The position numbers and the translations under genes were made by a program. A DNA stretch of 64,000 bases from Lytechinus pictus (Eukaryota): assembly GCF_037042905.1 (NCBI RefSeq), contig NC_087251.1:28336001-28400000 (forward strand), read 5' to 3'. The notes under the pieces are model-generated. The model worked only from the letters and a program-made list of their open reading frames with translations, ran no database searches and was not told the origin of the DNA. Below are positions 2,808 through 60,314 of this stretch, piece after piece. Positions within the stretch are counted from its first letter, which is position 1, and every line of letters starts with the position of its first letter.

Positions 2808-5800
2808 TTAGCATGTTAAGTGAGGAGGCGAAACGATTGTGCTGAAAATGAGGACATTAATTTGAATTTCATTTAATGATCTGGTGCGCTCTTTTGGTAG
2901 AATTTTGTGGCATTTGCCATTGAAGAATAGGCTTTGAAAATCTTGGAGAGGGGCAAGAGTCCCTCACCCCACCCCCCCCCCTTCATACGACAATGTTAAC
3001 GAAATCCACCTGAATTATGCGTCGAAGAATCACCAAACTGAAAAGCAGATTATGCAATGTATACTTGTATAGTTTAAGTGTTTGTGGGATGCAAAAATCA
3101 TTCGCAAGATTTTTTTTTCAGTTTTAAATGCTGAGCTAAAGATACAGCCTTTAAAACCTGCGCATTTTTGGGGGGTGCGAACTTTAGAGATCATTTAGTT
3201 TTATTTTTCAATACCAACATCTTTCGGAACGCTTCTATGCCGAACACACCTTTCCCGTGAGGAAGTGCACATTTTTGCTGCAAATCAACAAAAATGTACA
3301 AGATAGTTTGTCGATTCCACCATTAAATATTTGATCTTTTGAAACTGACTCGAGAGTTAGATTTCTTGATTTAGATTTCAATATTCTTTGACAATACCTG
3401 TATAAGAGATTTCTATGTCTCGATTGAATCAAGGTCAAGTTGTGCCAGCCCCCCCCCCCCCAAAAAAAAAAAAAAAAAATCCTTCCCCATCAAAATTATC
3501 GAAAATGTTATTTAAACCATTGTCTGTTGATATTGTTTGCTTGAAAAAAAATAATGAAATACTCTTAACATCCCTAAATGACCGTCATGACAATAAGCGT
3601 CTATAATATGCTATCTGGCCACCCCCTTTTTTTTAAACCAAAATCCCCTTTTTACTTCAGTTAAAGGCCAAGTCCATCTCAACAAATAAGATGAGTTGAA
3701 TAAAGTTTTGCTGAACCAAAATGCCAACCCCCTGGAAAATTCTGGATAATTTGAAATCAGATAATCAAATACATATACTGCCAATATCTTTTCAAGTTTT
3801 AGCATAAAAGGGTATTTCTTGGGCAACTTCCCTACATCCTCCCCCCCCCCTCCTCCCATCTGTGTACTGCCTGTAACAAAGTTTATCAAATTTCATCTTA
3901 CTCTATGATACCACTCGTATCGAAAGATTGAATTGCCCATTATCAAATATGAAATCTTATATTTGATTTTCACAGAGTCTTTGAATAACACCCCCTCGAG
4001 ATAAGTGTGAAGTCGAGATTGTTTGCTTTGAAACCTGGATTAGTCGTCTGACTCAGAGAAGAAATGACTCATACCCAGTGGCGTAACAGGCGGGGGGCAG
4101 GGGGGCAAGCTGCCACCCTGGCGGATTTCACCGGGAAAATAAAGAAAACCGGGAAAAAGAGAAAAAGGAAGGAGAAAGAAAGGGGAAAAAGAATGGAAGA
4201 AAGGAAAGGGAAAAGGGAAAAGAAAACGAAGAAATTTTTTTTAATGGAAAAGGAACGAAAGCGGGGAAAGGAACGAAAGAAAGAACAAATCATTCCGAAA
4301 TAGGCCTATGTAATGCAATAGCATGATTGGAAATAAATTAAAAGATGACAAAGTGGCAAACAATAGCGGGAAGCGAAGGTAGAATGGAATTGGACAAGCT
4401 AAATTGGAAAACAAAGAAAAGGGACAAGAAAAAAAATCTTAATAACACAACCGGGCTGCCGAGGATTGAAAATTTAAAAAAAAACGGGAAGAAAGATGAA
4501 CAGCATATACAACATTGTGCTATAAGCTTGCTAAATTTTATGCAAATAAGCTACCGGGGATTTGTCCCAGACCCCACGCAATAGGGGCTCTTTATCTATA
4601 ACCTTCAAATGGCTCTATAACACCCCCACCCCTGTAGGGACCCTTCCTACATTAAGCTTTACGTTCAATCACTGGCGTACAGGCGGGGGTGTCTTGGTTC
4701 CACATCCAAGAGGAAATAAAAGAAAATTATAGGAGACAACGTATAATGAAATGAATGGAAACAATAAAATGTATTATTTGCTGAATATAATGGAAAAAAC
4801 TATCACATAATTATAATTCAATTTCATTAGGCAATTTTATTTTAAGCTCGCTTTGCTCGCTGGAGACTTCTTTTACAAATTTTCCCACATTGTTATGTTT
4901 TACCCCCCAACTTTGGTTCATTACGCATCTGGGTTGAATAAAATAAGATTTGATTAAAAATAGCGGCAATCTGCGAGGTTTAAGTGGCTTTGATAGCAGA
5001 AGTTCCGGGGGCTCCGCCCCAGACCCCAACCGCATAGCACTGCCGTATATGAGTTTGGAAGGTTTTGGCCATGGTCCCCAAAAGTTCCACAAACAAGAAC
5101 AAAAAAAGGAGGAAAGAAAGCAAAGGAAAAGTGTAGGATATGATTTTATTTACTGAATATAATGTAAAGTTAGATTCTCATGAAGAGGTGATTTTTTTTC
5201 TCGCTCGCTTCGCTCGCTCGGGACTTATATTAAGCAGCTTTTTAGCACATACACCATACTGCGCCCCTTGTTTTTTTGTTATTTTTGTACTCTTCACGCT
5301 ACTGTCCAAAGAATCCTGTTCACAGTGGCGTACAGACCACAAAAAAGGAATATATTATTTTCTGGATATCATGTCAAAGTCTATCACAAAATTGGATTTT
5401 TGTATTAAAAATGTCAAAATTTTTGGTCGCTCGCTCGCAACTTTAAAAAAAAAAGATAAATTCTGCCCGATACGCAATATCTAACCCTCTCAAAATCGTC
5501 TCCTCATTACACCATTACGCCTGTTCATACCATGAAATGACCGGAAAATTTTTGGCTCTTGCTCCCCCCTGGCCATAGTCTAGTTCTAGACGATATTAAA
5601 CGAATTTGTTTTCACCGATATATACGTTCTATTCCGTGCGTACGCCCCGCCGAGTGTGCGCGCAAAACCGAGAACCTGTACTCCGAGAAAAATATCGTCT
5701 AGAACAGTTGCTCAGCGGTGACGTCACTCCCTCAGATTTTTGAGGGAAAGTCGTTAAAAGTGGACACGCCTCCCGTTCAGCCGCTAGTCTTTGTTAACAG

Positions 5801-6685
5801 CAGGGAAGATTACTGGGTTGAGAAATATGGTGTGATCTACCGATAAAATGAATATTAATTACCTAAGAAAGGACTTTTTGTTGTAAATAATTTATAAAAG
5901 AAATCAAATTAAACACACAAAAACATCATAAATGAATCGGATCGTGTATGTTTCCCCTGATACCTACAATAAGGTTTTTGAGCGTAGACTATCGTATATA
6001 GATTACATATACAATACACACACACACATAATCAATCGGATCGCACAAAGCAGCACAACATTAGCCATAGACTTGTGTACTGTACCGTCTGCCGTGATGT
6101 TGTATCAGGGAGACTCCCAACTCCCTGGTTGTATTGTGTACTGTAGGCCTATACATAATTATACAGCGCGCGGTTTCCAAATTCAGTTTCTTGCGTGTTT
6201 ACCAAATCAGACAAGTCTTGATCACTTATATCTTCGTTTTTTTCATATATGGTGTGATGGCGACGGGTAATTAACGTCATTCTATCAGAGATTCCATCCT
6301 GCATATGTCCAAACAGTTGGGAACAACGACTTTGAAGATCCAACAGAACAAAGCTCTCGAAAGTTTCCTCCGAGGCCACGATGTCTTCTTGAATATACCT
6401 ACTGGGTATATATGGAAAGAGGGTAGCAACTTTATATCCTTCAAAATTGACACTCCCCTTGATTTGGGTTAATTATGTAATTTCTTCATGATGCCAGTTT
6501 AATTGAAGTCACATGGCCCCAAGTTTCCTAAATGGAGTCACTTAAAAAGCAAGAAATTCTATATTTCCACATGTAAAATGACAATGACAATTTTACACAT
6601 TTCCTCATAAACTTGTTCCACAGAATTGCTTCTTTTGTTCGCATGACAATAATATATAGCAGGAAAATAATGTCAAAGTCATTAA

Positions 6686-7272
6686 AGGTCAAGTCCACCC
6701 CAGAAAAAATGATTTGAATAAATAGAGACAAATCAAACATGAATAATGGTGAAAATTTCATCAAAACCGGATGTAAAATAAGAGAGTTATGACATTTTAA
6801 AATTTGGCTTATTTTTCACAAAACAGTTCTATACTCAACTCGGTGATATGCAAATGAGAGAGACGATGATGTCACTCACTCACTATTTCTTTTGTTTTTG
6901 TTTGAATAATACAATATTTCAATTTTTACGAATTCGATAATATTAGTGCCCCTTTGCTCGAACCACAAAATGTTAGAATAATGGAATTACATGTGTTCAG
7001 GGAGGAATGAAACTTTTTTAACAGACAATGACGAGAAAATCAAAATATTTCATAAAATAAAATACAAAAGAAATAGTAAGTGAATGATGTCATCGGTCCC
7101 CTCATTTGCATGCTGACTAAGATGTGCATATAACTGTTTTGAAAAATTAAGCGAAACTTGAAATTGTTATAACTTTCTTATTTTACATCCAATTTTGATG
7201 AAATTTTCAGAGTTATGTTTGTTTGATTTTTCTTTATCTATTCAAGTCAGTTTGTTGGGGTGGACTTGTCCT
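6686..7272. mobile_element. TTAA-targeting MITE (Kolobok-like)
   Basis: TIRs AGGTCAAGTCCACCCC / GGGGTGGACTTGTCCT; TTAA on both sides (6682-6685, 7273-7276); truncated relative at ~25725-25830. Confidence 0.85.
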
Positions 7273-7496
7273 TTAACTGGCAAGTTTGATCTGAAATGTA
7301 CTGTTCTTTCATAATATGGCTGACCAAACAATAATTGGAATTTGCAGTAGAACAAGAATACAGTAATTGTCTCCCTTTTGCATTTATTGAAGTTGACTGA
7401 GTAAACTCTCTCTGGAACAAAAAAATCCTAAAGAACCATGACCAAAACAAAACTCACAAGTCGGTCATATTTGTACGTACAGTATAGCACTTTAAA

Positions 7497-8353
7497 CAGT
7501 GGCGTACCTGGAATTTTCCACAGGGGGGGGGGGGGGCAAAACCGTCCGCCAAAAAAATTGACAAGCAAAAAAAAAAGTCTTCAATCACAAATAAAGGACT
7601 TCGTACCTGGAAAAAAAATTGACAAGCAAAACAAAAAAAAGGTCTTCAAGCTCGTCAGGGGGCAAAAAAGGCTTTTTTTTTCAAGCTCGTCAGGGGGCCA
7701 AGATAGTCCTTCGCCCCACCAATAGAAATAATTGGGGGGGGGGGGCAAACATATCGTTTTGCCCCCCCCCCTCCAATAATTCCGCATGTACAAAAATAAA
7801 ATAAGATGGTAATGTTACACAGAAATCAGCAAGCGATATTGAGCTACACGACTCGTTCTTTGTTTAAAATCGTGCTCAAATTGTCCGCTTTTCAGATTGG
7901 AATACAAAAATTTTCAGCACGCGCTTCGCGCTCGCACCATTTCTGTAGCAAAACCCCATACTTTTCATGATTAAATAGGTGAATAGAATGTCCCGTTCTC
8001 AGTTCTAAACCTCAAAAGAAGTCCCGCTTCGATTTGCAATAATCTTTTGTTGGATATAATCTTGTTCTTTATTAAAAACGTCCATTAAACTGTCATTTTT
8101 TTTTCAGATCGAAATTTTAAGCTCGCGCTTTGCGCTCGCATGTTTTGTCTTTTTTAGATACCCATCTTAATCATAGGTACCAAAATGCAGAGGATATCAA
8201 GCTTTCTGGTCAGAATATAAAGAAATTTCAGCTCGCCCTCGGCACTCGCATTATCTGTGTAGTGAGATATGTATTCTCCTCATGAGTTACTACAAACAGT
8301 CTTTAAAAGGCACCTTTTTCCTATTTTCAGGTCAGTTTACTAAAAAATTTCAG

Positions 8354-8389
<36 letters not shown>

Positions 8390-8494
8390 GAGTGTGTGTG
8401 AGTTTGTTTGTTTTGTGTGATCGAGCGCCGTTGGAAAGTTGATTTATGATTTTGCCCCCCCCCCCCAATGTGAAAAAAAGGATCGACGCCCCTG
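7497..8494. mobile_element. Composite hAT-like MITE fragments with CGCGCTTCGCGCTCG repeats and a (TA)n tract
   Basis: Starts CAGTGGCGTACC, ends GATCGACGCCCCTG; no matching TSD; (TA)n at ~8355-8388. Confidence 0.5.
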
Positions 8495-9344
8495 TGTATA
8501 TATAGTAAAAAAAATTGCATCTCAATTAATATACACAAGTATTGGCCTCATCGCAATAAAAGGGTTGGGACACGAGATTTTGAAATCGCACATAACATGC
8601 ATAATTTGTGTTACTTTTTGCTTGTTTCTTTCTTTAATAAGTTTTTCAATCTCTCTCTATATATGTCTAAGAAAGATTATATGTCTAAATTCATGTATAT
8701 TTTATGTTGTAATGATATATGTTTAAGTGGATTTCAGGGAATGGTCGTACGCAGCAAGGGGGAAGGGGGGGGGGGGCAAATTCCCGATCAGTTGTTGTGA
8801 AAACACATTTTTTCCCTTAACATTTCATGAAAACTATGAAAAATGTGCAAATGTGAGATGTGTACCAAATACTTTTATTACACTTTATAAAAAAAATAAT
8901 CGCCGCATGAGCAGCTCGGTCCGTTTACTCTATCGTTTTTATTTTTATTTTTCAAAAATATGTTCGAGTTTTGCCCCCCCCCCCCCCCGGAAATATTATC
9001 TGCGTGTGGTCATGCAAAATGGCATGACTGGAAATCCTACATTTTGAAAAGAGCATTTGACAGGGTCAGACTTTACCCCTTTTTCAACATTTTCTTTTAT
9101 GGTGCAAAAATATGTGCGCCGCTCGGCGGTGCCCCCCCCCCCCCCTTTCGCCAAAAGCTGGATCCGCCTATGCAAACTAAATGTAAAAGTTACACTGCAA
9201 ACGAATAGTTACTAGCGATTTAATTAACTGGCAAGGTACATGTAGATCTGAACATAACGCTCTTTCATAATGGCTGCAAAAAATATATTTCATAAATACT
9301 GTACTTCAAAGGTAATGAGAAAATGTGCCTTCAAGTTTATTTAT

Positions 9345-10166
9345 AGATCCAGACCGGACCCGAAATGAAATTGATAAATTATATACCAATCGAAAGCTTA
9401 TAAGCTACTAAATACAGCAAGGTATGCTATATTAATTTTCACCGCTTCCCAGCTGAGTAATTTGCTTAAGAATATTCCAATTATCGGCCTTCGAACCCCG
9501 CTTAGAAAATAGGCTTTATTGTGCTTTTCACCTGCCTCGAGACCGTGACGTCACGTTGTGTAAGAAGCGTTGTGATTCCATAGGTTTGTACACAGAAAAA
9601 CAGGGTGATTTTTTTGCTTTCCAGATAACGCATTTCATTCTCTTCACTTCTATCACAGAGGGATATCACATATATTTTTACCCACAAGCTTGAAATTATG
9701 AAATCTACAGTTTTGAACTAGTTTTTGCCATATTTATTTCCTGCTTACTTGGCGCAAATTTCAATTCTATCTGCATTTAGATTATGTATAATAACTTTTC
9801 CTGACATAGCAATTTAGGCCCAATAAGAGCCAAAAAAAGAAATCACAAAAAAGGTAGTGAATAGTTGTAGGTTTACAACAATTTGAACAGTGAATAATTT
9901 TGAGTGCCATTTTCATCTGAAAACGAAAAAAAAATGGATTCATAACATGGAAATGGAAGAAAATACCCAATGCTTTTGTACACAAACCTACAGAATCACA
10001 ACCCTCCTGACCACGTGACGTCATCATTTCCAGGCGACATGGGGGTGCTCAATCGAAGCGTACTTTGGAGGAGTAGTTTCTTTGATTTTTGTTTAATATT
10101 TTTAACTATTGGAAGAATCATTACCTTTATTTTAATATATGATTGTTTTTACACCGGTCAGGGTCT
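9345..10166. mobile_element. Kolobok-like non-autonomous element, inverted copy of 31889-32753
   Basis: TIRs AGATCCAGACCGG / CCGGTCAGGGTCT; 4-bp TSD TTAT (9341-9344, 10167-10170); high identity to the reverse complement of 31889-32753. Confidence 0.9.
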
Positions 10167-13100
10167 TTATCGAAGAGGCTTCGTGTACATCATTGGCAAT
10201 ATCATTTCCTGGCTACCTGCATGTAGCTAGATAATAATGTAGCTGAACAACAAAAAATAATTGTACGCATTATCTATATGTCCATGTAAAGTAAATAAAT
10301 AAACTAAAAGTTCCAAGGACAATTGCAAAGATTTTCTTCCAAAATCTGATGCACGCATCAAAATCCGCATTTGTGAGATTAATCTACTTTTAAAAATCAA
10401 TAATGATTTTTATTCTGTTTTCCTTATCCCTTTCACAGCTCTGTACTAATCTGTACAAAGTACATGTACTTCTCAACCCTTTTTGTCATACTCTCTGCCC
10501 ATGGGTGTCGATCGGTATTCTTGGTTGGGGGGGGGGGTGATTGACACAAATGTTCTTGTGGATGGGGATCTTTCAACATTACCCCCACTAAAATCACAAG
10601 TTAGGACATTTGAGAGTGGTTGATATGCATGGTGTTCTTGGAAATTGCTTAATTGTTGCAGTGTACTTTACTTATATAATTTTTTTTTTAATTCAATTTG
10701 TGTTACAAGTAAGCTTATTATAAACCCATACGAAAGAAAAATGACAAAAAATGTCTGGACCATGTACAAAGTGATATGTTTATTGAGCATAATGTATACA
10801 ACTTCTCTCTTAAATCTAACCCGACTGGCAATATCTTTTTTCTTCTTAATGCATGATGATAAAATGCACATTCGGACAAAAAATATAAGATTAGCACAAA
10901 TTACAAACTGTGTGGCTTCTCGTGTGCCATCGGGCTTACCGTCATTCCTTAGACGATTTTAACCCTGGATTTTAACATGTTTTAAATACTTTATAAGTGC
11001 ATGAAACAAAAACAAACATTAAAACAATCAAAACTCAACTGTCATGTCATGATATTTCTCCAACATTTTCTTGAACCATCAGCATGATCAGTGTGTAATA
11101 TCAGCTAATATACATTATGTGTTACAATGAAATTTACGTACCGCATGAGTGTGCTCATATAGAATGTAAAACTGCCATCCTTTTCCAAACTCAAAAGATA
11201 TTTCTTTTTGCCAAAATAAGAAAAAAATAATCAAGTTTAGTTATTCAAGTCCATAACAATAACAAGAATAACATGAAAAAAAAACATCCGATGTTCATAT
11301 CCTCATATCCGCTTTAGAGAGAATGAATGATTATTCTTTCTGAAACCATCAATTGATTTCACTTATTAAAACATTTGTAAAAATATGATCATATTATATT
11401 GAGCTCACTGAACCTCAATATTTTCATGAGAGGTATCTGATGGGGTCACATGATAAAATGTTTTAATATCAATTACATCCAACCGCATACAACAAAGGCA
11501 CCATATATAAGCTACTGATCACCAAACGACTATATATTATGACTTTTTTAAAGTGAAATTTTTGCATTTGATGTGGGCTCACTCTTTCATGACTATAGGC
11601 ACCTCATTTCCACATAGATAGATAATGAGGACATCGATGCTCTCCTGCAAAATATTATTGACCAAAAGTTATCGTTCAAGCATGGACCTACTAGGTCCAT
11701 GGTTCAAGTCAAGGTATTTGGATATACAAGTAGGGGTGACTTTCGTTTTGTGCACATCTTGCTTTTGGTATATTTTCTTGTTCAAAGGTTTACTGAATGC
11801 CGAACTTAATATATAACTAACATGACATACATCGGTAAAGTGTGTATAACCAGGCAAATAAATGAAGTGATAAGCCTATACTCTATAGAAACGCAAAGGT
11901 ATTTTTCTTTTTCTCTGAATTTTCTGGGAATGAATAAGAAAAAGGGTGAAATAGAACAACATCTATTTCAGGTAGTCTCAATAATGTCCGAAAATCTTTC
12001 GCCTCATGTCAGACCTCATTGCAAATAACTTTTTATGAGCGGCGATCCCTGGCGATTTACTTATTTTACATAACAAAAAGGAAGTGATATTCAAAAGGGT
12101 TGTAGATTAAATGGAACAAACATCATGCACTTGGATGTGGGAGGGGTAAATCTGAGAAAAGTTATTTGTACTTTTTCAAAATTTACCCCTCTGGGATTTA
12201 CGTCCATGGGGTTTTCCCTGTTTATCTTGCCACCCTTTTACTCCCGTTTATTTTTCCACCCGTTTATTTTTCCACCCTTTTGAATTAATTGATTTATTAA
12301 AATGTATTTATTCACCACTACCTGGTGGGATAGAACACCCTATCAACAAAAGTTGTTTTTAGTTCGTCGGGGTCCTTTTATGTCATGTGTTAAAACTTAC
12401 ATAAACATTTAATTTTTTGTCATCTTGAACCTCCACCCATCTGTTTTAAAGTCCTGGAAAATAATGTTTTTATTTAATAACAATATACACACATTGCGAC
12501 GGAAACAAACTGATTGATGGCATACTATAATCATCACTATAATTATCATGATCATACTTTTTCATTTTTCATCATCATTATTATAATTTTTCTACCCTAA
12601 ATTATTGGGGGGGGATGATAATACAGGCCATCCCCCACTTGAAATATTAGGGGGGGATATATCCCCCCATCCCCCCCCCCCCCCCCGTGATCGACACCCA
12701 TGTCTTTGACAGTGAAATATGTGAAGAAGACTTTGAAAATGATATATTTACAAGTGCCCACAGTAAAATGTACCGTGATGTGATCCATTCACAAGAATGA
12801 GAGTTTAATTACATGTATGAGTCTGAATTTTCAATACCCATACTAAGACAAAATGCCTTTATGTAATTACATGTGTAGATGAAGAAGAATATAAAATATA
12901 TCATTCAAACATGTACATTAATTATTCCATCTGAGTAAAGTGGAAAAACTATAGTCTGTATTGTTTTGAAGTTTGAAATTTGGTACATTAGCACCTTCTT
13001 TCATATATCATGATGGTAACATCATACCCACAGATTTAACCAAGATATGCACATAGAGTGAAATAACTATTATGCATGTAACAGTAATTTCCCAACAATG

Positions 13101-16100
13101 AAATTTCTATTTGTAGCCTTAAAAGTAATGAACTATCTCAAACTGTCGTATGATACATGTACATGTATTTACATCACATAGATCACGGACGCTCACGTCC
13201 CTGCATAGATATACTACATCAATCCCACGTGCACAATGTATGCAAATAACGAGTGCAAAACGTAAACAACGGTTCGGCGCAGCGAGATTGACAAGTAACT
13301 CATGCATATTCATGAGCACTCGTCCGTTGACCTTTGACCTCTGACGTCACCGCTGAGCAACTGTTCTAGACGATATTTTTCTCGGAGTACAGGTTCTCGG
13401 TTTTGCGCGCACACTCGGCGGGGCGTACGCACGGAATAGAACGTATATATCGGTGAAAACAAGTTCGTTTAATATCGTCTAGAACTAGACTACCCTGGCC
13501 ACCGACCCCTGTTACGCCGCTGCTCATACCTCGTTCAAAAACTCTTTGAAGCTGGATCGGCATTGTAGTACGTTTAGAGAGAATGGAGTGATTAGTGAGA
13601 GAATTGGAGAGGGCAAAAAAAGTGTGAGTGCATGGGGGGCATGGGGCGAGAAATGAACATACGTATCAACCAGATATTACAAGAAATGTGATGAAAAATG
13701 ATTGTTTGAGATGAACAATACAATCATGAAGCTCTCAAACATCTTTTTCAAATAAATAATGGATGTCGTGGTAACCGACCACAGCCCCCTCCCCCGTATC
13801 GAAACTTGTTTGAATTTTGTCTGTAAATTTTACTTTTCAACAATGACAAAGAATATTCAGTCAAAAGGGTGTTTTTGCTTTAATTATTTAATTGAAAGGA
13901 AATTCAGTCAAAAGGGTGTTTTTGCTTTAATTATTTTATTGAAAGGAAATTCGCGCTCATCTTATCGGTCTGTCTTGTGATATTATGTTTCCGACTATAA
14001 AGAATGATCGGTAACGTAACCACGATTTCCACTTTTCAGGAGACAATGGCCAGTGATATGTATCCGATATGATACTAAATAAGGAAGGTATACCTATAAT
14101 TCATTTGATATCATGATAATGGATAAACATTACGATGTATTGTTAATTGTTTTCATTATTTGAAGCATTATTATGTTATTTTCTCTCATAAAATTAAGAT
14201 ACAATAATTAATAGTCATTTTAGCTAAAGCTCGATCACCTCACAGGATTTTGATTGAACTTAAATTTGTAATACACTGACCTGAAACAGAAAAAAGGAGG
14301 GACTTGTTGATGACTCATTGGGAGGATACCTATCTCGTCAACCAAATTATGCATTTTTTACAAGCTAATCTGAAAAGTTGACATTCCAACCTTTTTTGTA
14401 ACCATGACCAAAATAAGTATCTTGGAACTCGAATACAGGAACTCGAGTGAGTTATCCTCTGGAGCAAAATATTATCACACTCAAGGCATCGTTAGCGCGA
14501 AGCGCCAACCATTTTTTTCTAAAATATAATGACCTGAGAGTTTTTATCACTATTATTCCCCGTCCTTGTGTCATTCACTTCTCTTCCTTTTCTTTTTTTT
14601 TTCTTCTTTTCGTCCTCTCCTTCCCCCTTTCCTTTTTTTTTTTTTTGGGGGGGGGGGGGGGTTGGTTCCATAGAAAAGAAAGGCTATGTAGGGAGAGATC
14701 TTTAGACGAGCCAGACCCAAATTTGGTGGACACTTATTGTAATGAATTACATTAGATATAAAAAAAAATATTGGAAAGAAAGAATAACTTGAACTCCTTT
14801 CTCCTTAAAATTGCATGTGAGAAATTCTATCAGACACGAAACAATGAAACAGGCATAATGAAATGTAGCATTCACTTCTTAGAAGGTAAATCTATCGTCT
14901 TAAAACTAAAAATAGTCACCTTAAATCTTTCGATTCATGAATGACATTCACACTGTCTTACAAGAGTTTATAGCACCTCGGGTATCATTCAAATATAATA
15001 TTTTGTGTGTATTTATGTATCATTTCAATAGTGAAGTGCATAGTCAATATTTCAAATTGATCATAGTCATAATATTCTTTCATAAATTAAATCAAACGTG
15101 ATTTTCAAGAGGACCAGATTTGTTACGAGCTTATCAAATGGAAATGAGTGCTTTAGAATATCTTGTTTAAACATTTAGCTCAAGTCAAAATAAACCAAGA
15201 CTGCTGAAGTAGGATTTCTCAACACCTAACTGATAAATTGTGTTTGTTTCAAATGATAATGGTTGTTAAACCTTATACTTTATACCGTGCAACGGCCGAT
15301 AGCGAAGTTGGTCGAGAATATAACTGCGAACGTTTTCATTCTCCCAGTAACCTTTCAGCAAGGATGGATGACGTAACCAAACCCCAACCAAACTCGACTG
15401 AAGGTTCTCAAGTCTGGTGATAATTTATTTATAACAGATGATTAATTAGTCTAAATGGCTTATTTTGGAATGTAAATTCAATCATTTTGCTACAAGTTTA
15501 TACCAATGGTACTTAGGAAACATATATGTCTATACAACAACGATTGGCAGGCAAAGGAACAAAATGTAAATTGGAAATGGTTGCCAACAATTTCTTTTTT
15601 GTTAATCAAGCATAGATATCGACAAAAATGTAACTTCTATTTAAAAGAAGGGGGAGAAAGAAAAAATTCTTAGCCAGAAAAAATGACAAAAAAAACTCCA
15701 TAAACATGCCACACTTGTCATATGACTTTTTCCCTATTTCCTAGCACATGAACTTTGTAAGCACATCTGAATAGTGATGAAATAATTTACGTCACACCCT
15801 ATTGTCATGGAATACAAGCTTTCATTCTTCTATGCATAATGCATACATGTATAATAAACGTTACATGGTGACACGCCCCCTCCAAAACAAACAAAATTAT
15901 ATTTGAATCCCAGGGAGAAAATGATTAGATATAGTGCGATAAAACGAGGGCAGGGAGAAAGTAAAAAAAGGACAGAAAAAACCCACAGAGACAGAAAGGA
16001 AGACGCAATGAAAGAAAACGAGAGAAAGGTGAATAAGAATAGGAAGAGACGGGGGAGGGGGGGGGTGTCATTTAGTTTGCATGCTGTTTGATCTATATAC

Positions 16101-31462: not shown

Positions 31463-32972
31463 GAGTTCTATTCCAAAAACGAGCTAAATTCTATTTTAAC
31501 ATTTTTCCGTAAATAAAGGTTTTTTAATTTACCACTTTCCCTTATCCACAGCTGCTTTATTTTGATATATAATGATAGTAGATAGTACTTTCGTTTTAGA
31601 TTAATCAAATAATGTTTTTAAAAATTTAGCATCCAAAATCAATTTTTAAGAATTTTATGAAATTTTAATTTTGTATGGATTTAGCTCCTTATGGAATAAA
31701 GCCATAGTTGAAGGTCCATTTTTGTCAATTTAAACATGTTTAATATTGGAAATTGAACACACAATATTGCTAGAAGAGTACATTTGCATCATATCTGATT
31801 TTTATTCATTAAAAATTTTAAAAAGAATAAAATTATATTTTTTCAACTTTTCTAAGGACTGTCACCTTTTGATGTTGAATGAGCTTAAAGACCCTGACCG
31901 GTGTAAAAACAGTCATATATCAAAATAAAGGTAATGATTCATACAATACAAGTATACCAAAAATATTACATATATCTCCTTCCATTTCTGACAAATATTA
32001 AATAAAAATCAAAGAAACTGCTCCTCCAAAGTACGCTTCGATTGAGCACCCCCACGTCGCCTGGAAATGATGACGTCACGTTGTGTCAGGAGGGTTGTGA
32101 TTCCATAGGTTTGTGTACAAAAGCATTGGGTATTTTCTTCCATTTCCATGTTATGAATCCATATTTTGTTTCGTTTTCAGATGAAAATGGCACTCAAAAT
32201 TATTCACTGTTCAAATTGTTGTAAACCTACAACTATTCACTACCTTTTTTGTGATTTCTTTGTTTGGCTCTTATTGGGCCTAAATTGCTATGTCAGGAAA
32301 AGTTGTTATACATAATCTAAATGCAGATAGAATTGAAATCTGCGCCAAATAAGCAGGAAATAAAATATGGCAAAAAATAGTTCAAAACTGTAGATTTCAT
32401 AAATTCAAGCTTGTGGGTAAAAATATATGTGATATCCCTCTGTGATAGAAGTGAAGAGAATGAAATGCGTTATCTGGAAAGCAAAAAATCACCCAGTTTT
32501 TCTGTGTACAAACCTATGGAATCACGACGCTTCTTACACAACGTGACGTCACGGTCTCGAGGCAGGTGAAAAGCACAATAAAGCATATTTTCTAAGCGGG
32601 GTTCGAAGCCCGATAATTGGAATATTCACAAGCAAAATACTCAGCTGGGAAGCGGTGAAAATGCATAAAGCATACCTTGCTGTATTTAGTAGCTTATAAG
32701 CTTTCGAGTGGTATATAATTTATCAATTTCATTTTCGGGTCCGGTCTGGATCTTTAATCTAATTTTTTTCGTAAAAATAGTAAAATTATGTTATTTTCAT
32801 CAAGATGTGCACATATGGTGTGAACTTGTATCCACAGCGTATACCTAAATAAAATGAATTAATAACTCTATATCAAGTAGTAAAATTAAACAAATTTACA
32901 TGACCCGGTAGTGGATTTAGCTCCGTTTAGAATAAAACTATTTGGGATTTAGCTTCTTTCGGAACAAAACTC
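31463..32972. mobile_element. TIR element with GAG...CTC termini, hosting a Kolobok-like insertion
   Basis: GAGTTCTATTCCAAAAACGAGCTAAAT vs ATTTAGCTTCTTTCGGAACAAAACTC; GATTTAGCTCC motif repeated internally; no clear TSD. Confidence 0.5.
31889..32753. mobile_element. Kolobok-like non-autonomous element
   Basis: TIRs AGACCCTGACCGG / CCGGTCTGGATCT; TTAA TSD (31885-31888, 32754-32757); second copy at 9345-10166. Confidence 0.9.
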
Positions 32973-41423: not shown

Positions 41424-41483
41424 CCTCAGTGTGAATTATTTATAACAAACAATCACCGTCTAACCAGACAGGGAAAACACATT

Positions 41484-41916
41484 AGGTGGTTTCAGACCGC
41501 CTCAAAGTTCGTCAGTTCCAGGTATTTTGGTAATGTGAAAGCAAACTACGCGTAATTTCCCCGATAGAAAATACCCGCTAAATAGTAGGTACTTGGCGAA
41601 ATTACGAGAACTTTCGCAGGGATTTTTCCAAGGTCGCAGGTATTTTGGCAATGTGAAAGCAATTTACGGGAACTTTTAGCCCAGCGTGTCGTTGGGCACG
41701 GGCGCCGTGGGTGGCTGCTGGGCTAGTGATTTTGAATCTCGCGCCTTGCCTGCTTATCAGACCATACTGCGCATGCTCGTAACTTCAGGAACTTATCCCG
41801 AAGAGTATGTTTCGGGGCGGTGTGAATGCAGGAATAATTAATGGGTATTTTTTAGCCTAAAAAAGTTCTCGTAATTTAACGGGGATTCTTATGATCGAGG
41901 CGGTTTGAAACCACCT
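41484..41916. mobile_element. PIF/Harbinger (PHIS)-like MITE
   Basis: TIRs AGGTGGTTTCAGACCGCCTC / GAGGCGGTTTGAAACCACCT; 3-bp TSD ATT; second copy inverted at 53303-53778. Confidence 0.9.
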
Positions 41917-44699
41917 ATTGCTTGATTTGTCTCGCATACAATCCACATGGAATTGTAAGACACAAGCTACATGTAGTCAAGTTTGTTATGTCTGTACATT
42001 GGCGCCAGTGTTATGACAGTGCTTTATCTGAGGACAATGTAATCTTCACGGATTAGAATGGCATGTTATGTTGTGAGATGCCTTATACTATGAGATGCTA
42101 CGCAATCTCGATGCTTTGCTCTACAGCAGAGCAACATCCACTCTAAATTTAGTTCCTAATAGAAAATGTATACATGTCAGCAACACATTTTTTTTATTTG
42201 CATGGTTTATTGAATCATAAACATGAAAAACATTAACATCTAATTGTGAGAGATTGGAAGTGTTGAGGTTTGAGATGTAAAGCAAATGAAGTTTGTCGTG
42301 TTTGCATATAGTTTACAGTTCATATTTCAGGCTTAATCTGATTCTTTTGTTTAAGTTTTGATCAATAATGAAGTGCATTTACTCTCATGATAGATATTTT
42401 GGAATATTACCAATTGGAGTTGTCAAGGCCAGTAAATCCTATTGAGAAGTGTGGTAGAGTACTTGTTTGGTGCCATTCTAAAAACAACTCTTCTCTTCTA
42501 TTTCCCTCTTTTTTTCATAAAGTGAATCCATGTAAAATCTGTAAAATCTGTGTGAATATCTTAGTCATTCACTGTACTTTGATTTTGAACATTTAGAAGC
42601 AAAAGGTGTTTAAGAATATTCTTGCCATTTTCAAATCATCTCTATTGTTATTATACACTATAAAAAAGTAAATTTCTGTAAAGTGTAAACCCTTTTGTGA
42701 TACCTGCATTGTGGGTATATCCATGTATATTTTGCAGGTCCATTTTAATGAAACAATTTTTTTCATGGACAATGATTGATCAGTGATGCATTTGGTTATT
42801 TCATACAGATAACAAGTATCCCAAAGCTTGAATTGGTTTCTTTTGAGTGTTGTGCAATTAATATGTACCTGTACAAAGAGCAAGAAGGCCTACTTCATTT
42901 GATTGGAATCATTGGCTTTGTCACGGTTATGATAATGAAGATCAGCCGCAAAGGGAAAATGATTGGACTTGTCCAGATGGATTATCAATACTTGACAATA
43001 TTGATGGGTTTAAGGGCTGGAGGATAGAACTCATGTATGTGCTCATAGTACCATTGTTGTAGTAGGTCCATGCTCATACTCGGCTCAGTATGCTAATGAG
43101 CTGCAGAGTGCAAACTTTGTGCAGTATGTTCCAGGAATTGTACTGTGATTGTAATATTAGATTTTTAAAATGTTTTTACTACATGGAAAGTATACATAAA
43201 ATTCATGTTATTTTTAGAATGATATTTTGAAACATACTGAATTAGAAAATGTTCAATATATTCTATTACACTTTGCAGATTAATGACATCCAGCCACTCA
43301 TATTCATTGATTGTTTGGGGGAAATGTGTATATACCAGGCTCAAAGATATTTATTTTTACAATTTCCTTTGTATAATTTCATTTTTATTTTAACAATATT
43401 TGCTGGTCTACCAGTACTTAGTTTTAACCATGAAAAGACTACAAAAGAACTCTCCATAAGGTAAAGCTAAAATATCATTAAAAAGTGTCATTTTCAAATA
43501 CAAAATATTCTTATCAGTACATGTATATCACGAAATGTGAATGAAACTAAGTTTATACAACTTTCTGTAAAGGAGATGATGAGGAGAGGAGATAAAAAAA
43601 TTTATGGATATTTGAAACCATCTCAGCTGTTTTGAAACAGTTTTTTCTTAAATCTTCATCTTTCAAACCAATTTACCTTGTGATGTGGTAGCACCATTGA
43701 GCTCTTGTAGATTTTTAAAGTAAAATACCTCTGTATTTTTAATTGACTGATACTACAATTAATCCTTAATAATTGAGTATAGAGGAGTGTCATATACAAT
43801 GAATTCACCCATCTTTAGAGTTGTGATGAACACAGGGGTATGGGTCCACTTCTTTGTCCATGATTCCACATTTATAGTCCAGTCAATCTAGCCAGAATAG
43901 GGGGGTAACCCACCACTAATTGCAACACGAGATATTCCAATGAAATGCTTTCCAGGAAGGTCCCCTTAAAAACATATTAAAAGTCCCAAGAAATCCAAGC
44001 AGTGGAAATTAATGAAATTTGCATATTATGCAAATTAGCCATGAAAAAATAGAAAAAGAAGGGAAATAGTCCAAAGATTACAAATTAAATGTCCAAAACA
44101 ATTTAATTTGAACGGAAATTCATGATAAACAACTGAATTCAATGTTTTTAATCAAAAGTGTAAAAATTTCTACCTCATTTGCATATTATGCAAATAAGCA
44201 TCCTTATATGGAAAAAATGTCAAGATATTGTGATTTTTCTCATATAGACTGCTTGAAAACATTTCATTAATGTTGACATTAATATGCTACTATATCACTA
44301 AGCATGATAATTCATCCCAATGCCTGAAAATTAATTTGCATATTATGCAAATTAGCCATTTAAAAAAAAAATGAGGAAATTAATCCAAAGATTACAAATT
44401 AAATGTCCACAGCAAGTAATTTTGAACAAAAGTTCATGATGAATAAATAAGTTCAATGTTTTTATTTAAAAAAGCTAGCAAATCTGCCTCATTTGCATAT
44501 TATGCAAAAAAGTATCCTTATATGGAAAATGTCAAGAAATTTTGATTTTTATCACATTGACTGCAGTGAAAACATATCAGTTTTTCAAATTAATATGCTG
44601 CTATCACTAAGTATTCAAATCTATCCTAATATGATTTATATTCAAGGAAAAATACTGGAAATATGTTCTTCGCTTCCTAAGCCGCGTTGTTAGTCTGAC

Positions 44700-46400
44700 A
44701 AGATGATGGGATCAGCAAGAACAAAGCACATTATTTGAACTGGTGTGTAGTTTGTGAGAGTTGACAACCCTTTCTTATATGGATGGGAACGACTTATATC
44801 TTGTTGAAAATTCACCGTATAAACATGCTAAAGGGAGGCCAGGAAAAGCAAACTTATGGCAGGTAAGATATGATGAGTAGTCTCATTAAGAAGTGTAGCA
44901 GAGATTCCGTCTGGCCTAGTAGCTTCATGCAGGATGTTTTCTTTAACAATTTCTTAACAATATGTTATCTGGCCATATCTGGGTCAGGACTGGGTCCCAG
45001 GACTTGTAGAGCAGCGTCATCATCATCATCTTCATGATCAGTGGTGAATACTAAGACTAAAAATCGTTTCCTTCCTTTAATAATGATATTCCAATGTAGT
45101 CATAGCTATTAATATTATGGGCTCCCAACATGCTAATTGTTACAGCCTGGATCATTGTCAATCCGGTCAACAAAATATGTATTATAGGCTTGTCTACAAA
45201 CCCTCTTATGGTCCTCTTTAATGCATTGTAGCAATTCTGAGCTTTACCTTACTGATGCTTTTGGAGCTCTTAAAATAATGTGCAAGCCTTCCTAGCCTTT
45301 CTCTAAAACTCTTGACATCTTCCGACACAACTTATGTCCATTGTCCATTGAGGCAACTTGTGTCGGAAGAAGACATGGTTAACGGTGTGTTCTTGTTAAA
45401 GTCCTCTTGATTGGCATTCAGTCTTCTATGCTCGACTTGTCGGATTTCAGTACAGAGAGTTGTATGATTGTCCAAAGTACATCTGCATGACACTATTAAA
45501 GTCAGCATTCCTCCAGAAGAACATCCTTAGTCGTACCATAATTGCTAAAAGGTTTATTCCTCTGGATAACCTCACAGTATACCCATGAGTAACACATTGT
45601 GGCAAATAAATCCTGGAAGTGGTACACACTGTCTAATCAATGTTGGATGGTATTTGATGGTGATGTTAAGGGTGTTCCATTGTGTTGTGTCCTCTTGTTG
45701 GAAAGGCAATAATCTGGCTTAGTCCTCCATCTGGTTTGTTCATTGTCTCACTGAGGAATTTCTGTTTACCATAAATATCAGGACATTAATATTATTAGTT
45801 GCATACGACTTACTTAGAAACTATAGCTTTAATATTTGGAGATGGTTGCCATAGGAGATTTATCAAAGAGGAAAGAACAGAAAATGGATGCTTCATCATG
45901 AAGCAGCAACTGGATTCAGCATCACGATTCCTGTATCTGAGAAAGATGCCTATAATGCACTTTAAAGTGATCATTTCACTTTGTTCTGATTTAAAAAATT
46001 CTCCTTTTGGTTCCTGAAAATGGGCTAAACATTAGGCTTATAGTGTAAAAATACCATCCCAAAAGTTTCAAAGTATTATATTTACAGGATCAATTTTAAA
46101 ACCTTGGAGAAGTAAACCAAAGTTTAAAAATAATTGGGAGTTGGTTTCAATGACTATGTGTATACAGGGAATCTGTTTCACCACAACACATTAATTCTAG
46201 AAGAACACAGCATGACCTACAGTGTGTACAAGGTATACACTGAATGTACAGTGCAGCTAATAGCGTGTGTATAGGAGATACACACAACAGAAGGCAGTCA
46301 AAATAGCCAACGGACTTTTTGAATTGGAGAAAACTGGTCATAAGCTGAACCCGTCTACTAGACGGTTCTCAAAATCAGGCTAATAAATTGCTACTTATAT
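44700..46400 (-). pseudogene. Heavily decayed transposase-like remnants of the Academ-like element
   Basis: Minus-strand fragments LFDKSPMATISK (~45870-45835), FGQSYNS...VEHRRL (~45476-45419) and FNKNTPLTMS resemble Academ transposase motifs SLFD..MR...K and VFDxY..S.K..E..RR; many stops and frameshifts. Confidence 0.35.
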
Positions 46401-46668
46401 CTAAATTAGAGTTTTTCATCCTATATTGTGGTCTGTTTCAGGGTTTTTGAGGACAAATACAGGCACTCATACACACGTTTCAACTCAGTTTGAGAATTTT
46501 TTTAATCAGCTGCTCACAAAGTTAAACGATCCCTTTAAGCCTTCATCATGATTTTTTGAATGGCTTTCATGTCGCTCGTATAGGCAAATGCCCATTGTTA
46601 CTCTTATTAAGCATGCCCAGAGATCTTGTGATCCAAGCAAGTACTCATATTCACCACCAAGAAAAGTG

Positions 46669-47073
46669 ATGATGATGATGATGGGTTCTTGTAAAGCGCC
46701 GGTATCCGCCTCAGCTGGGCGCTCATGGCGCTTGCTCAAAAATAGGAAATATCTCACAAATTTCAATGTCTTCAAACAGTGCTTAGGATCATCATTCAGT
46801 TCAAGTACTGTTCTAGTAATGCTACAATTGAGTTATTCTTGGGATAATGTTGGAGTGGGGAACAGGAAGGTACGACTCAAAAGTTGATTGGGTCTCTGCT
46901 CTCCTGATAAATTGGGGAAGGCTATTCCACAGCTTTGGTCCAGAGATGTAGAAGGCTCTGTCACCCCAGGTTGTGTAGCTGAGAGATTCCCTCAGCAATG
47001 CTTGATCTGCTGATCTGAGACTGCATGTTGGTCTATGCTGAGCTAAGAGCTCTGATATGTAGGGTGGAGATTT
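46669..47073 (-). mobile_element. L2/CR1-type LINE 3' fragment nested in the Academ-like element
   Basis: Minus strand KSPPYISELLAQHRPTCSLRSADQALL...TTWGDRAFYISGPKLWNSLPQFIR, the typical L2 ORF2 C-terminus; (CAT)n tail at ~46669-46683. Confidence 0.85.
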
Positions 47074-49921
47074 AAGACCCCAAGGTTATAAGCTAAGTGG
47101 TGTGCTACAAGGACCAAATATTCGAAGCTAATGGGCTTTTATTTGTACGGGTGTCACATCTTGTGCTGATCACTTGGCAATCCAGGAGCTTGCTAGCGTG
47201 GACTATACTCGCAAGAAACGCAAAGTCTCTACAAAGTCAAGAAGAGAGCGAGACTTGGATGGAAATAATGAAGCATTCAAGTAGTGGGATCCATGTAGAA
47301 TGGACTCATCATTGTACAATATGAGTGGGATAAATGCTCGTGACAAAAGTCAATATCAAGCAAGCAAGAAGTGTAGGGAAGGTCATCATGGTTAATACAC
47401 ATAATCTACATGGAATTTTAGAGGAAAGTATCACTATGTGTTTCCTTGATTATTTATAACATGTCGGATGCTTATTTGCATACTATGTAAATTACACTTC
47501 AGATATTAAGCTGATTATTAATGTTTTTGCCATTCTTAGTGATCACATCATATTGATCTAGACTGAAATGTTTTCATAACTGTTTTTGTGAGAAAAGTCA
47601 AAATTTCTGGATTTTTTTTCAAATAAAAATGCTCATATATATGCAAATGAGGTAGATTTATTTACGATTTCTTATTTAAAAAATAACTAAATTTGTAAAA
47701 CTTATCATGGGCTTCACTTCAATTCGTATTGTTTTCTGCACTTGATTTCCAATATTTGGATTATTTTCCTTATTTGTAATTTATTATGGCTAATTTGCAT
47801 AAAATGCAAATTTTGTGATTTTTCTATATGCTTGTATATTTAAGGACTTTTAATATGGTGTTTAGGAAACCTTCCTGTAAGGTATTGCCATATTCCAATT
47901 TCAATAAATAATCTACTTGCAATTTTTGAGGGATGTATCACCAGTGTGTTTTCTTGAATATTTATAACATGTTAGATACTTTTATTTGCATAATATGCAA
48001 ATTACACTACAGACACTAAGCTTAATACAAATGTCTTCAACGTCCTTAGTGATAGCAGCATGTAAATTTCAATATTAATGAAATTTTCAAGCAGTTAATG
48101 AGAGAAAAATCACAATACCTTTACATTTCTCCATATAAGGATGTTTATTTGCATATTATGCAAATGAGGTAGATTTTTTTGCACTTTTGACAAAGAACAT
48201 TGAATACAGTTATTTATCATGGATTTTCGCTCAAAATAAATTGTTTTGGACACTAAATTTGTAATCTTTGGGCTATTTTCCTTAATTTTCTTACTTTTTA
48301 TGGCTAATTTGCATAATATGCAAATTTCATAAATTTCCACTGCTTGGATTTCTTGGGACTTTTAGTATGTTATTTAGGGGACCTTCTTTGAAATAATTGC
48401 AGTGGAATATTTCGTGTTGCAATTAGTGGTGGGTCAAACTCTATATTGACTGGACTATTAGAACTGCTTCAATTCCAACTTTTCCAACCAAACAGTTTTC
48501 AAATCTTATGTGCCTTTTCCATGTTACAGAATACAGAATAAACATCACTTGTAAGGATTGTAATATCTAGTCTACACATATTATTACAATTAATGACAGT
48601 AGGATATCTTCTTTGACTGATTTAATCCAACTATATACCCTCAAATTGTAACAAATAATGTAATTTTCTTTGCATTTGAAAGATATTTTTTTAAGTAAAA
48701 AAAACAGTAACAACAATAGTTAGCCTTCTTGAACATCATCTGGGATTTTATTATTATGGTTAATATGGTCGAAACTCTGAAGGTCAGATAAATAATTGAT
48801 AAGATTAAACTATTCACAGAAATATCTTGTACATGTGGGTATACTTTCAGGCAGTGAATATGTTTTTTTGATGGATCTTCATTCATTGCCATCCTATTCA
48901 GTCCAAGTTATGAATATTTCTCACCTTCCAGATTTGGCAGATGTTTCTTTGAAACTAAAAACCCAACTTGACTGTCTAGGATATTGATTTGATGATGATC
49001 TGCATTTTTTAATACATGTGACTGTGAGTGTGTTGACAGGGGGAACACTTCCTGGCAACCGTTCACCCTAGCAACAATACCAAACAGTCTGACTTCCTGT
49101 GGAGGCCCTCCAATTTAATCCATATCATCCCAAGCCAGATATAGCTCAGACAAGAGCTTACATTCACATGTTAAACTTAAATTGGACTGGCATTTGAGTT
49201 TATAAAGGAGTATAGAAGATAATTCTAATATTCTACCATTGGGTCTACTAATATGCAGGGAGTTATTAATGAACAAGCACATTTCAAAGAAACTACTGAT
49301 TTAAGTGAACTACTAGTATCACCAAGTTGAATTGATTTCAATGCTATTACAGTCAGAAAAGATTTGCTGAAAAGAAATAAGCAATAGTTACTATCTCTAA
49401 TAGTTTTAATTGTAGAAAGAAATGTGCCATAAATCTGCTTTTTTGTTCGAATAGCCCTATGACTAAAGATAAATAATATTTTAATTTTTAAATAATATTT
49501 TAACAAGATTTGAAAATATTTATATAAAATGAATGTTTATGAATATCTGAACAATGTATGACAGTATCCTTACTATGCTACAGTATATGAGACAGAGTAT
49601 TTTAATTTTTGACAAAAATTTTCTCAAATTTTGAAATTGATAATAATATAACTCAAACTAAAATTTTCTCAAATTTTGAAATTAATAATATAACCCTTGT
49701 TACCCAGGATAGCCCACTTCAGATGTGAGCTGTTCTTCTCATGGGCGTGTCAAAATTTATGTTACCCTTCTCAATTCTAGTATGCTCATTGCCTGGCAAG
49801 CGGCAAAAGGTACAAGTTTTATGGTAATGTTTTAGGACCAAGAGCACATGTCGGATATAATGAACTTGAAAAGGCAGGATTACTTCATGTAGATCACAGG
49901 TCACAACAATTAGTATTACAC

Positions 49922-51553: not shown

Positions 51554-53090
51554 TCTGTATTTTCACTTAAAAGATCTACAAAATTATATTTAATTTGTTT
51601 CATGACTTCTGATTCAAAGGATCAAAGACAACAGATGAAGTTGTGTCTTCAGCTTATAAAAAGATGACCCAATCATTTTCCAGAATGTAATGGAGATAGA
51701 TGGTATCAATTAGAGGCTGTGTATAATGATCTATGATTTTCCCCATGGGTAGCAATTATTCATCAACATAATATTAATTCTGTCTTTGTGAGACTTTTTT
51801 CCTACATTTTGTACCATGGGAATAAATGATGATTTGTCTGTTAAGAAGCATGTTCTAAAAAGAGAGCTTCTTTGTCACCATGGAGACAATTGTTTGGGCT
51901 TCAACTTGAATTGTGTACACAGGAGGCTTTACAAGCTGCTTGTTTGAACAGATTTACAGTGGATATATTCACACCAGCCTCATCGTGAAAATATCTGTAA
52001 ATAAGAATTTGCTCAGGTCTCAAAATACCAGGGCTCATATGAATAAAATCTGAAATAGTCTGATTATATCTTATTACTCCTGCAACAAAACAAAATAGGT
52101 TGATTATTAGGCTTTTACATCTTTTATGAATATGGACCCAAATTCACACCTACATAAATCAGATAAAGTTCTCTTTTTTATCAACCAGTGACAGCACTGT
52201 CATCCCTATAAACAAACTTTTCTTGCCTTATATCAAAATTTCTTGTAAATCCCTATTTTTCACACTCAAATTGGCTACCTTGGATAATTGCTTGCGAGAG
52301 TTCTAATTGTTGAAATCATCCGGATATAACTTGTGTTATTCTCTGTTGGCGTTAGGATTTTACTTTTCTAATTGTTCTTGCATGAGATCTGCATCAGAAG
52401 AAATATAGGTTATTTTTGTAATTGGACAGGTGTGAAACTGAATGCGACTACATCCTGGTTGTCATTAGGCATTCATTCAAATACTAGTTTCATTCTCTAA
52501 GTTTTATTACTTTGGCACTAGTCAATATTGAGTAATGCCTTTTCTTCTACAAAGATGAATATACTTCTGGCAAATATTTAAAAGAGTTAAAGGGGAATCC
52601 AGCCCTGGCCATTTAATGTTGTGATGGGAAGGAGAAAAATGAATTAAACAGAATGGTGAAAGTTTGAAAGAAATCGGACAAGCAATAAGAAAGATATAGC
52701 TGCTTTAAAATTGAGATCACTAATATCGTTAAAGTCAATATATTAATAGCTCATTGACTTCACAAAAAATGATCATGATGGGACCTTTGAGTTTTACTTT
52801 TTATTAGTACACAGAACTGTTACAGCTCGAACTGGGACTTGGTGTGAGCATTATTAAAAAAAAATTGAGCCCTTGAAATAAAATGTTTGAAATTAGCCTC
52901 TTTAAATTCAGTTTGTCTTTATATGCATGACAGTTTGCCTAAGAAAGATGAAGTGGTTCTTTATATAATGGAGTGTCATGAATGATATACGGTATAACTT
53001 CCCTGTCAATGCCATAAATTACAGCTCTGAAAATTGATGGAATGTATGCAAGCCAGATTAAAATCAGAGGGCCTATTTTGCTATATCTAT

Positions 53091-53245
53091 AGGTGGTTTC
53101 AGACCGCCTCGAAGTTCGCCAGTTCCAGGTATTCTCTGATCGGGAAATTTACCCCGATCAGAAAATACCAGGTATTTTGGCGGTGTGAAAGCAAACTACG
53201 CGTAATATCCCCGAAAGAAAATACCCGATAAATAGTAGGTACTTG
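53091..53245. mobile_element. Truncated copy of the 41484-family MITE
   Basis: Begins AGGTGGTTTCAGACCGCCTCG and stops at AGTAGGTACTTG; inverted relative to the adjacent full copy. Confidence 0.85.
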
Positions 53246-53302
53246 TAATGGCTCTATTATAAGATCAGTAATGGCCTGGTGGTAGAGTCACTGAGTGACA
53301 AA

Positions 53303-53778
53303 AGGCGGTTTCAAACCGCCTCGATCACAAGAATCCTAGTTAAATTACGAGAACATTTTTAGGCTAAAAAATACCCATTAATTATTCCTGCATTCACACC
53401 GCCCCGAAACATACCCTTCGGGATAAATTCCTGAAGTTAGGAGCATGCGCAGTATGGTCTAATAAGCAGGCAAGGCGCGAGATTCAAAACCACTAGCCCA
53501 GCAGCCACCCACGGCGCCCGCGCCCAACGACACGCTGGGCTAAAAGTTCCCGTAAATTGCTTTCACATTGCCAAAATACCTGCGACCTTGGAAAAATCCC
53601 CGCGAAAGTTCTCGTAATTTCGCCAAGTACCTACTATTTAGTGGGTATTTTCTTTCGGGGAAATTACGCGTAGTTTGCTTTCACATTACCAAAATACCTG
53701 GTATTTTCTGATCGGGGTAAATTTCCCGATCAGAGAATACCTGGAACTGACGAACTTCGAGGCGGTCTGAAACCACCT
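53303..53778. mobile_element. Full copy of the 41484-family MITE, opposite orientation
   Basis: AGGCGGTTTCAAACCGCCTC ... GAGGCGGTCTGAAACCACCT; near-identical to the reverse complement of 41484-41916. Confidence 0.9.
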
Positions 53779-60021: not shown

Positions 60022-60314
60022 GAGTGTACAGTGTAGTATGATGAAAAAAGTTTGACTTTTGCTTTGATGTCTGTATCATTGACATAATAGGCCCTGTCTT
60101 CTTCATCTCATTTAGATATATCTAAACTTTTTTAGAAGTTGAAATGAAGGATTTTCTTTTTTCTGATTATGAAAATAACATTCTGAGTTTCTACACTCTT
60201 GCTGTAACATTTTATGGACTCATGATAAGTGACTGGTCTTTATATGGTGTAAGTACGAATAAAATCTATTTTTGAGTCTGTTGACATGCAACCAAAGCTG
60301 ATATTTATCTTTAA

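Follow-up and report, generated by a model that had tools for sequence, protein, structure and literature searches.

A probable non-autonomous AcademH-like transposon derivative laden with nested elements in the sea urchin Lytechinus pictus

DNA transposons of the Academ superfamily are marked by TAG..CTA termini, a feature of which no statement was found in the literature searched, and AcademX elements also have a terminal TAG. The AcademH lineage of this superfamily was reportedly defined by Kojima in 2020 and, to our knowledge, its transposition has not been reconstituted so far. PMC10045372 gives a target-site duplication (TSD) of 9-10 bp for AcademH and of 3-4 bp for AcademX and relates this difference to the helicase of the former versus the nuclease of the latter; for the helicase and the 9-10-bp TSD, this relation is no more than a correlation. 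AcademH helicases are also mentioned in PMC10799480. A RecQ helicase occurs in KolobokH as well, which is reported from fungi only in PMC9587614, where Kolobok elements are described with a TTAA TSD and RR..YY termini. Furthermore, transposable elements that insert into an active element and are carried along represent a recognised source of mosaic families, for example SVA/LAVA (PMC9025800). Here we describe an Academ-type element of 7917 bp in a window of 64,000 nt from Lytechinus pictus (NC_087251.1; all coordinates are window positions). It probably works like AcademH as a non-autonomous member, and it is certainly not an autonomous AcademH. In our preferred reading, to which we assign a probability of approximately 0.6, a deleted AcademH derivative kept its terminal inverted repeats (TIRs), gathered miniature inverted-repeat transposable elements (MITEs) and owed its cut-and-paste movement to the transposase of a related element acting in trans, the staggered cut leading to the 9-bp duplication. 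Neither the present family nor any MITE-carrying AcademH from sea urchins was described in the literature searched, which did not include Repbase reports.

The element opens with TAG and closes with CTA, and its two TIRs at 5576-5726 (plus strand) and 13342-13492 (minus strand) are 151 nt long each and identical at 150/151 positions, with a single mismatch. It is flanked by the 9-bp TSD CCCTGGCCA, which is found in identical form (9/9) at 5567-5575 and 13493-13501, the chance of such a word being approximately 6e-7. The TIRs, the termini and the TSD agree with those of a preliminary description of the locus. Within each TIR, two 15-nt stretches at TIR positions 8-22 and 116-130 (5583-5597 and 5691-5705 on the left, with their equals at the mirror positions of the right TIR) form a perfect inverted pair that encloses 93 nt, and each TIR holds three GTCTAG/CTAGAC motifs. 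The inverted pair and the GTCTAG-type motifs may be regarded as candidate transposase sites. The first 18 nt of the TIR form an imperfect hairpin; the fold z-score is weak at only -2.0. No further copy of the TIR or of the sequences adjoining it was found by self-comparison of the 64-kb window, and the exact TIR-start pattern gave 0 matches in metagenome contigs. A TGACCTTTGACCT repeat at 13329-13349, which is nuclear-receptor DR1-like, adjoins the right TIR beside the CRE-like TGACGTCA that closes both TIRs.

The Academ-type element is itself inserted into another transposon, which had been overlooked before. This outer host element (4076-13522) has 15-bp TIRs matching at 14/15 positions and a perfect 8-bp TSD (CTCATACC) and measures 1521 bp without the insert; together with a nested element of 2.2 kb described below, we take it to be hAT-like from the 8-bp length of the TSD. 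The insertion lies 21 bp inside its right end, and the last 21 bp are intact. More CAGTGGCG-type starts were seen in the outer element at 4670 and 5323, and it may itself be nested.

Of 21 public sequencing runs, 4 were examined in the form of contigs, namely X1 (organism A), X2 and X6 (both organism B) and X11 (organism C). X6 and X2 are the deep runs (median depth of the long contigs 51 and 31, respectively), X1 and X11 are shallow, and organism B is a diverged relative, since a right-flank contig of X6 differs by 7% from the window. The joints and contig ends reported here are those among the matches listed. By depth, the outer element has approximately 500 copies in X6. A joint 5569->13496, present in two of the four runs (X2 and X6), skips 7926 bp, i.e. 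the 7917 bp of the element plus 9 bp. It reaches depths of 194 (3 contigs) and 390 (2 contigs), and its short side of 21 letters equals the distance to the host end. It is confirmed by this joint that the pre-insertion target held one copy of the 9-mer. Because of its depth and its short side, the joint is assigned to paralogous copies of the outer element and was not accepted as evidence for an orthologous empty allele. The empty site that had been proposed as a check was hence seen as a target sequence in paralogous host copies.

The coding content found in the element consists of the 5' remnant of a RecQ-like superfamily 2 (SF2) helicase with approximately 55 codons at 6257-6425 of the plus strand, which points inward and reaches motif I (the end near 6425 was set by eye). 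It is interrupted by an in-frame stop at codon 6 and by a frameshift in motif I after PTGY, and the rest of the gene is missing. With its 45 aa, word search (0/10 candidates) and the PDB gave nothing and Pfam no DEAD match; its identity came to light only with a full phmmer search against 1.84 billion proteins. Here, 11 matches were obtained, 9 of them with a DEAD domain and 2 unrelated, and the best match was the DEAD-domain RecQ-like protein XP_041453184.1 (P0001) of Lytechinus variegatus (E 8.6e-9, 67% over 42 aa). The named homologues come from Lytechinus and Diadema. With 36 relatives, which are animal or eukaryote-like proteins, tblastn and a hidden Markov model (HMM) matched the window only at 6272-6409 (iE 1.9e-11), and no further helicase exon was detected in the 64 kb. 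Among pattern matches in metagenome and viral contigs, 0/71 and 0/21, respectively, were confirmed by the helicase alignment, and no Rfam family was found in 4000-14700. A Pfam scan of the 118 stop-to-stop frames of at least 36 aa gave 1 match at E<=0.01, a weak unrelated G-protein-coupled receptor (GPCR) below its cut-off; the Pfam matches thus include no transposase remnant, with the limit that a short decayed one could be missed without an Academ transposase query. Since the coding trace is limited to 6257 to approximately 6425, the helicase gene has been lost by deletion, not by slow decay. The long and badly decayed coding interior assumed in the preliminary description does not exist in that form; what is left is the helicase 5' end, beside the one frame with its unrelated match.

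A quick tree of 34 proteins, computed without a labelled AcademH reference and with the remnant itself placed by BLAST score only, split 23 animal relatives from 11 RecQs bearing RQC, HRDC or SRI domains (SH-aLRT 99). Several of the animal relatives are found in clusters of multiple members from a single genus, a pattern to be expected if the genes belong to transposons. Two Lytechinus species have an intact 582-aa helicase of the transposon-like group in which motifs I, II, III and VI are present (XP_054758518.1, P0018, and XP_041462853.1, P0136). The identity of 553/583 between the two could point to a young family common to both species or equally to the domestication of an AcademH helicase. 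As the direct partner of the present element these two proteins are unsupported, being only 49% identical to the remnant.

The AcademH-like assignment made earlier is supported by the 9-bp TSD together with a helicase remnant that is nearest to animal RecQ-like proteins outside the canonical RecQs. AcademH elements have a TSD of 9 or 10 bp, and here both the 9/9 match and the empty-target joint, with the element plus 9 bp, give this value. TIRs with TAG..CTA termini are present, these termini being a mark of Academ, and the SF2 (RecQ-like) helicase is represented by the remnant alone. The Academ-type DDD/E transposase of autonomous members was not found, which excludes an autonomous element, not a non-autonomous derivative. 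Compared to AcademH, the element shares the TSD length, the TIRs with their termini and a trace of the helicase gene; it differs in the helicase cut to approximately 55 codons, in the lack of any transposase remnant found and in the large proportion of nested elements. AcademX belongs to the same superfamily and has the terminal TAG, but its 3-4-bp TSD and its nuclease gene contrast with the 9-bp TSD and the helicase remnant found here. KolobokH resembles the element in its RecQ helicase, whereas its TTAA TSD and RR..YY termini differ from the 9-bp TSD and TA..TA ends of the element. SVA/LAVA share with it an inserted transposable element carried by an active one, yet these are retroelements, in contrast to the derivative of a helicase-type DNA transposon described here.

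Of the 7917 bp of the Academ-type element, 5046 bp (64%) belong to five TIR elements nested in it. MITE-1 (6686-7272, 587 bp) has AG..CT ends and a TTAA TSD matching 4/4, is of Kolobok type and has approximately 30,000-40,000 copies by X6 depth. MITE-2 (7497-8494, 998 bp; listed as I5, 76%) is a high-copy element with TIR-like CAG(T/G)GGCG ends, for which no clean TSD was found at any length from 2 to 12. MITE-3 (9345-10166, 822 bp) has a TTAT TSD (4/4) and differs by 2.3% from X1 contigs; a second, TTAA-flanked copy at 31886-32757 is 96.7% identical without gaps, with 46 gap columns. The nested 2.2-kb element (10500-12702) has perfect 14-bp TIRs and an 8-bp TSD decayed to 6/8. Internally deleted forms of it are abundant in X2 and X6, as seen from joints that connect 10941-10953 with 12221, and its long form has only approximately 30-36 copies in X6. 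These four had been noted before and are all present at the positions given then. A probable further decayed element with G-tract ends and uncertain limits (8737-9172, approximately 110 copies by X6 depth) shows matching ends in the G tract only and no TSD. Two of the five seem to predate the outer insertion, which has a TSD of 9/9: the 2.2-kb element with its 6/8 TSD and a part that is 5.2% different from an X1 contig, and MITE-2 without a TSD. The subterminal arms are both non-coding. The left one (5727-6256, plus strand) is element-specific, and the right one (12703-13341) has no likeness to it beyond the TIRs (best local score 20). A TAGTCT...AGACTA pair, 207 bp apart at 5785-5991 in the left arm, resembles the termini of the element; by eye, it is without a TSD.

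In X1, three element-specific bins have depths of 3.9-6.7 versus 0-0.19 in three unique-flank bins; in X11 the corresponding values are 13.7-60 versus 0-2.0. The single-copy depth implied by the ratio of 22 high-copy bins to X6 is 0.05 in the median and 1.15 at maximum for X1, and 1.0 and 9.4, respectively, for X11. With generous bounds we infer approximately 7-110 copies for X1, whereas for X11 the left arm gives 5-15 and the right arm 20-60. These numbers are estimates, since depth in contigs does not equal copy number and the types of the libraries had to be guessed. The left-arm bin 5955-6305 has depths of 13.7 in X11, 4.8 in X1, 5.9 in X2 and 14.9 in X6, and the right-arm bin 12975-13325 has 60, 3.9, 31.5 and 167, respectively. 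The left arm is thus multi-copy in X1 and X11 and below single copy in X2 and X6, where the stretch 5955-6656 reaches only 6-15 while the TIR bins reach 180-620. Hence, the TIR family exists in organism B, apparently with other interiors; the low left-arm cover is a hint only, as it is a lack of cover with no contig joining across. The idea of a horizontal transfer into organism A was dropped, because the host repeats beyond the element are present in X1 as well.

Along the composite, four contigs of X1 (5622-6034, 6429-6709, 11440-11785 and 11771-12114) are 1.1-2.3% different from the window and have depths of 4.6-7.8. The first shows 7 differences over 412 positions at a depth of 7.84, and the last two, which lie inside the 2.2-kb element, are 98-99% identical at a depth of 4.6. 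Contig 6429-6709 extends 24-28 nt into MITE-1 and stops where an assembly with 31-mers, which we presume was used for the runs, would branch into a 40,000-copy repeat. Since its depth of 5.55 is like that of the arm, the common form of the family seems to carry MITE-1. We consider it likely that the element belongs to a young non-autonomous multi-copy family, which was amplified after at least one MITE had inserted. The preliminary description had contrasted young ends with an old interior. This contrast was overstated and largely dissolves, since the TIR mismatch rate of 1/151 has a 95% confidence interval (CI) of 0.02-3.6%, which spans the 1.1-1.7% between the left arm and X1 contigs. The whole unit is young as a copy, and its old look is the history of its founder.

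How such a copy could have arisen may be described as follows. An ancestral AcademH-type element would have lost its transposase and all but the first approximately 55 codons of its helicase, and the deleted element would then have collected MITEs of several unrelated families. As the TIRs stayed intact, mobilisation in trans would have remained possible, and a transposase, probably also a helicase, supplied by a related autonomous element could have excised and reinserted it. It would have been amplified to approximately ten to tens of copies in the X1/X11 lineage, carrying at least MITE-1 and probably moving as the whole 7.9-kb unit, and one copy would have landed 21 bp inside the right end of the hAT-like element and duplicated 9 bp of the target.

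However, several observations weigh against this reading. Contig depth is a rough measure, not a copy number, the library types are guesses ('DNA?' for X1, '?' for X11), and in both runs the depth of a single copy was calibrated against another organism label (X6). The junction contig 6429-6709 is short of the 31 letters on both sides needed to count as bridging, and the junctions of MITE-2, MITE-3 and the 2.2-kb element are bridged by none of the contigs listed. In X11, a depth of 14-15 in the left arm contrasts with 60 in the right arm, and the longest left-arm contigs are only 96.7% and 92% identical, a pattern that several related families fit better than one unit. In X6, where the left arm is lacking, the stretch 11.2-11.9 kb still has approximately 30-36 copies, and the X1 contigs in this stretch may therefore derive from that independent family. 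Moreover, neither a second locus, nor a different TSD, nor a transposase was seen in the data examined. The recent spread in trans as a composite that had been suggested is indirectly supported, by contig depth and one junction contig, as far as a multi-copy family amplified after at least MITE-1 is concerned; movement of the whole 7.9-kb unit to other sites is unproven. The active autonomous AcademH that was postulated along with it follows only in a weak form, as activity during the last 1-2% of sequence divergence.

Other explanations start from the same observations. The mobile family could be a shorter scaffold of the arms with MITE-1, into which most other nested elements inserted later at the present locus. 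That contigs support the MITE-1 junction alone, that the X11 arm depths are unequal, that MITE-3 has a perfect TSD while being 2.3% from X1 contigs and that the region is MITE-dense would all fit such a scaffold. Nevertheless, we consider it unlikely, given that the 2.2-kb element has a TSD of 6/8 and MITE-2 has none, yet the outer TSD is perfect, and given the X1 contigs inside the 2.2-kb element with 98-99% identity at arm-like depth. Improbable, too, is an element close to single copy. Library enrichment or transcription would then account for the surplus depth of X1 and X11, and the near-perfect TIR pair would go back to one end having been copied onto the other. The library types are not on record, and the window contains no second copy; but the arms are in excess in two runs of different organism labels and studies, and the generic-repeat contigs of X1 are few, long and consensus-like (612 versus approximately 55,000 in the deep runs), which fits trace genomic DNA.

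A further possibility is that the outer hAT-like element, or else segmental duplication, multiplied the copies, the Academ-type element being passive cargo that had inserted once. The depth data cannot separate the two carriers because the unique flank lies outside the outer element, and the 14/15 TIRs, the perfect 8-bp TSD and the last 21 bp left intact by the insert are in favour of the outer element as carrier. On the other hand, the insert stands between the outer TIR and its subterminal region, a region normally required by hAT transposases, and the left-arm contigs of X1 and X11 begin inside the Academ-type TIR (5622 and 5662) without run-on into host sequence. We regard a spread of this kind as very improbable. 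Beyond the trans-mobilised derivative that we prefer, it might even be assumed that the 7.9-kb gene-less derivative burst recently as a whole unit in one urchin lineage and took MITEs of four or five families, unrelated to each other, to new sites, while a living element with transposase plus helicase mobilises it to this day; we regard this extended version as rather doubtful. If true, AcademH would be a carrier of long cargo in an animal and would give an experimental handle on the function of the helicase.

Non-autonomous derivatives with nested insertions are ordinary in themselves, and the spread proposed here would be known behaviour in a little-studied group of transposons. Nevertheless, a young multi-copy non-autonomous family would imply that a matching transposase was working recently in a sea-urchin lineage, and the element offers ready-made ends for a transposition test. 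Furthermore, old MITE copies that are re-dispersed as passengers would confuse the dating of repeats. Other repeats of the window include a 96%-identical MITE pair (41477-41920 and 53090-53785), an inverted 450-bp tandem family at 43908-48434 and a TTAA-flanked MITE at 60310-60811.

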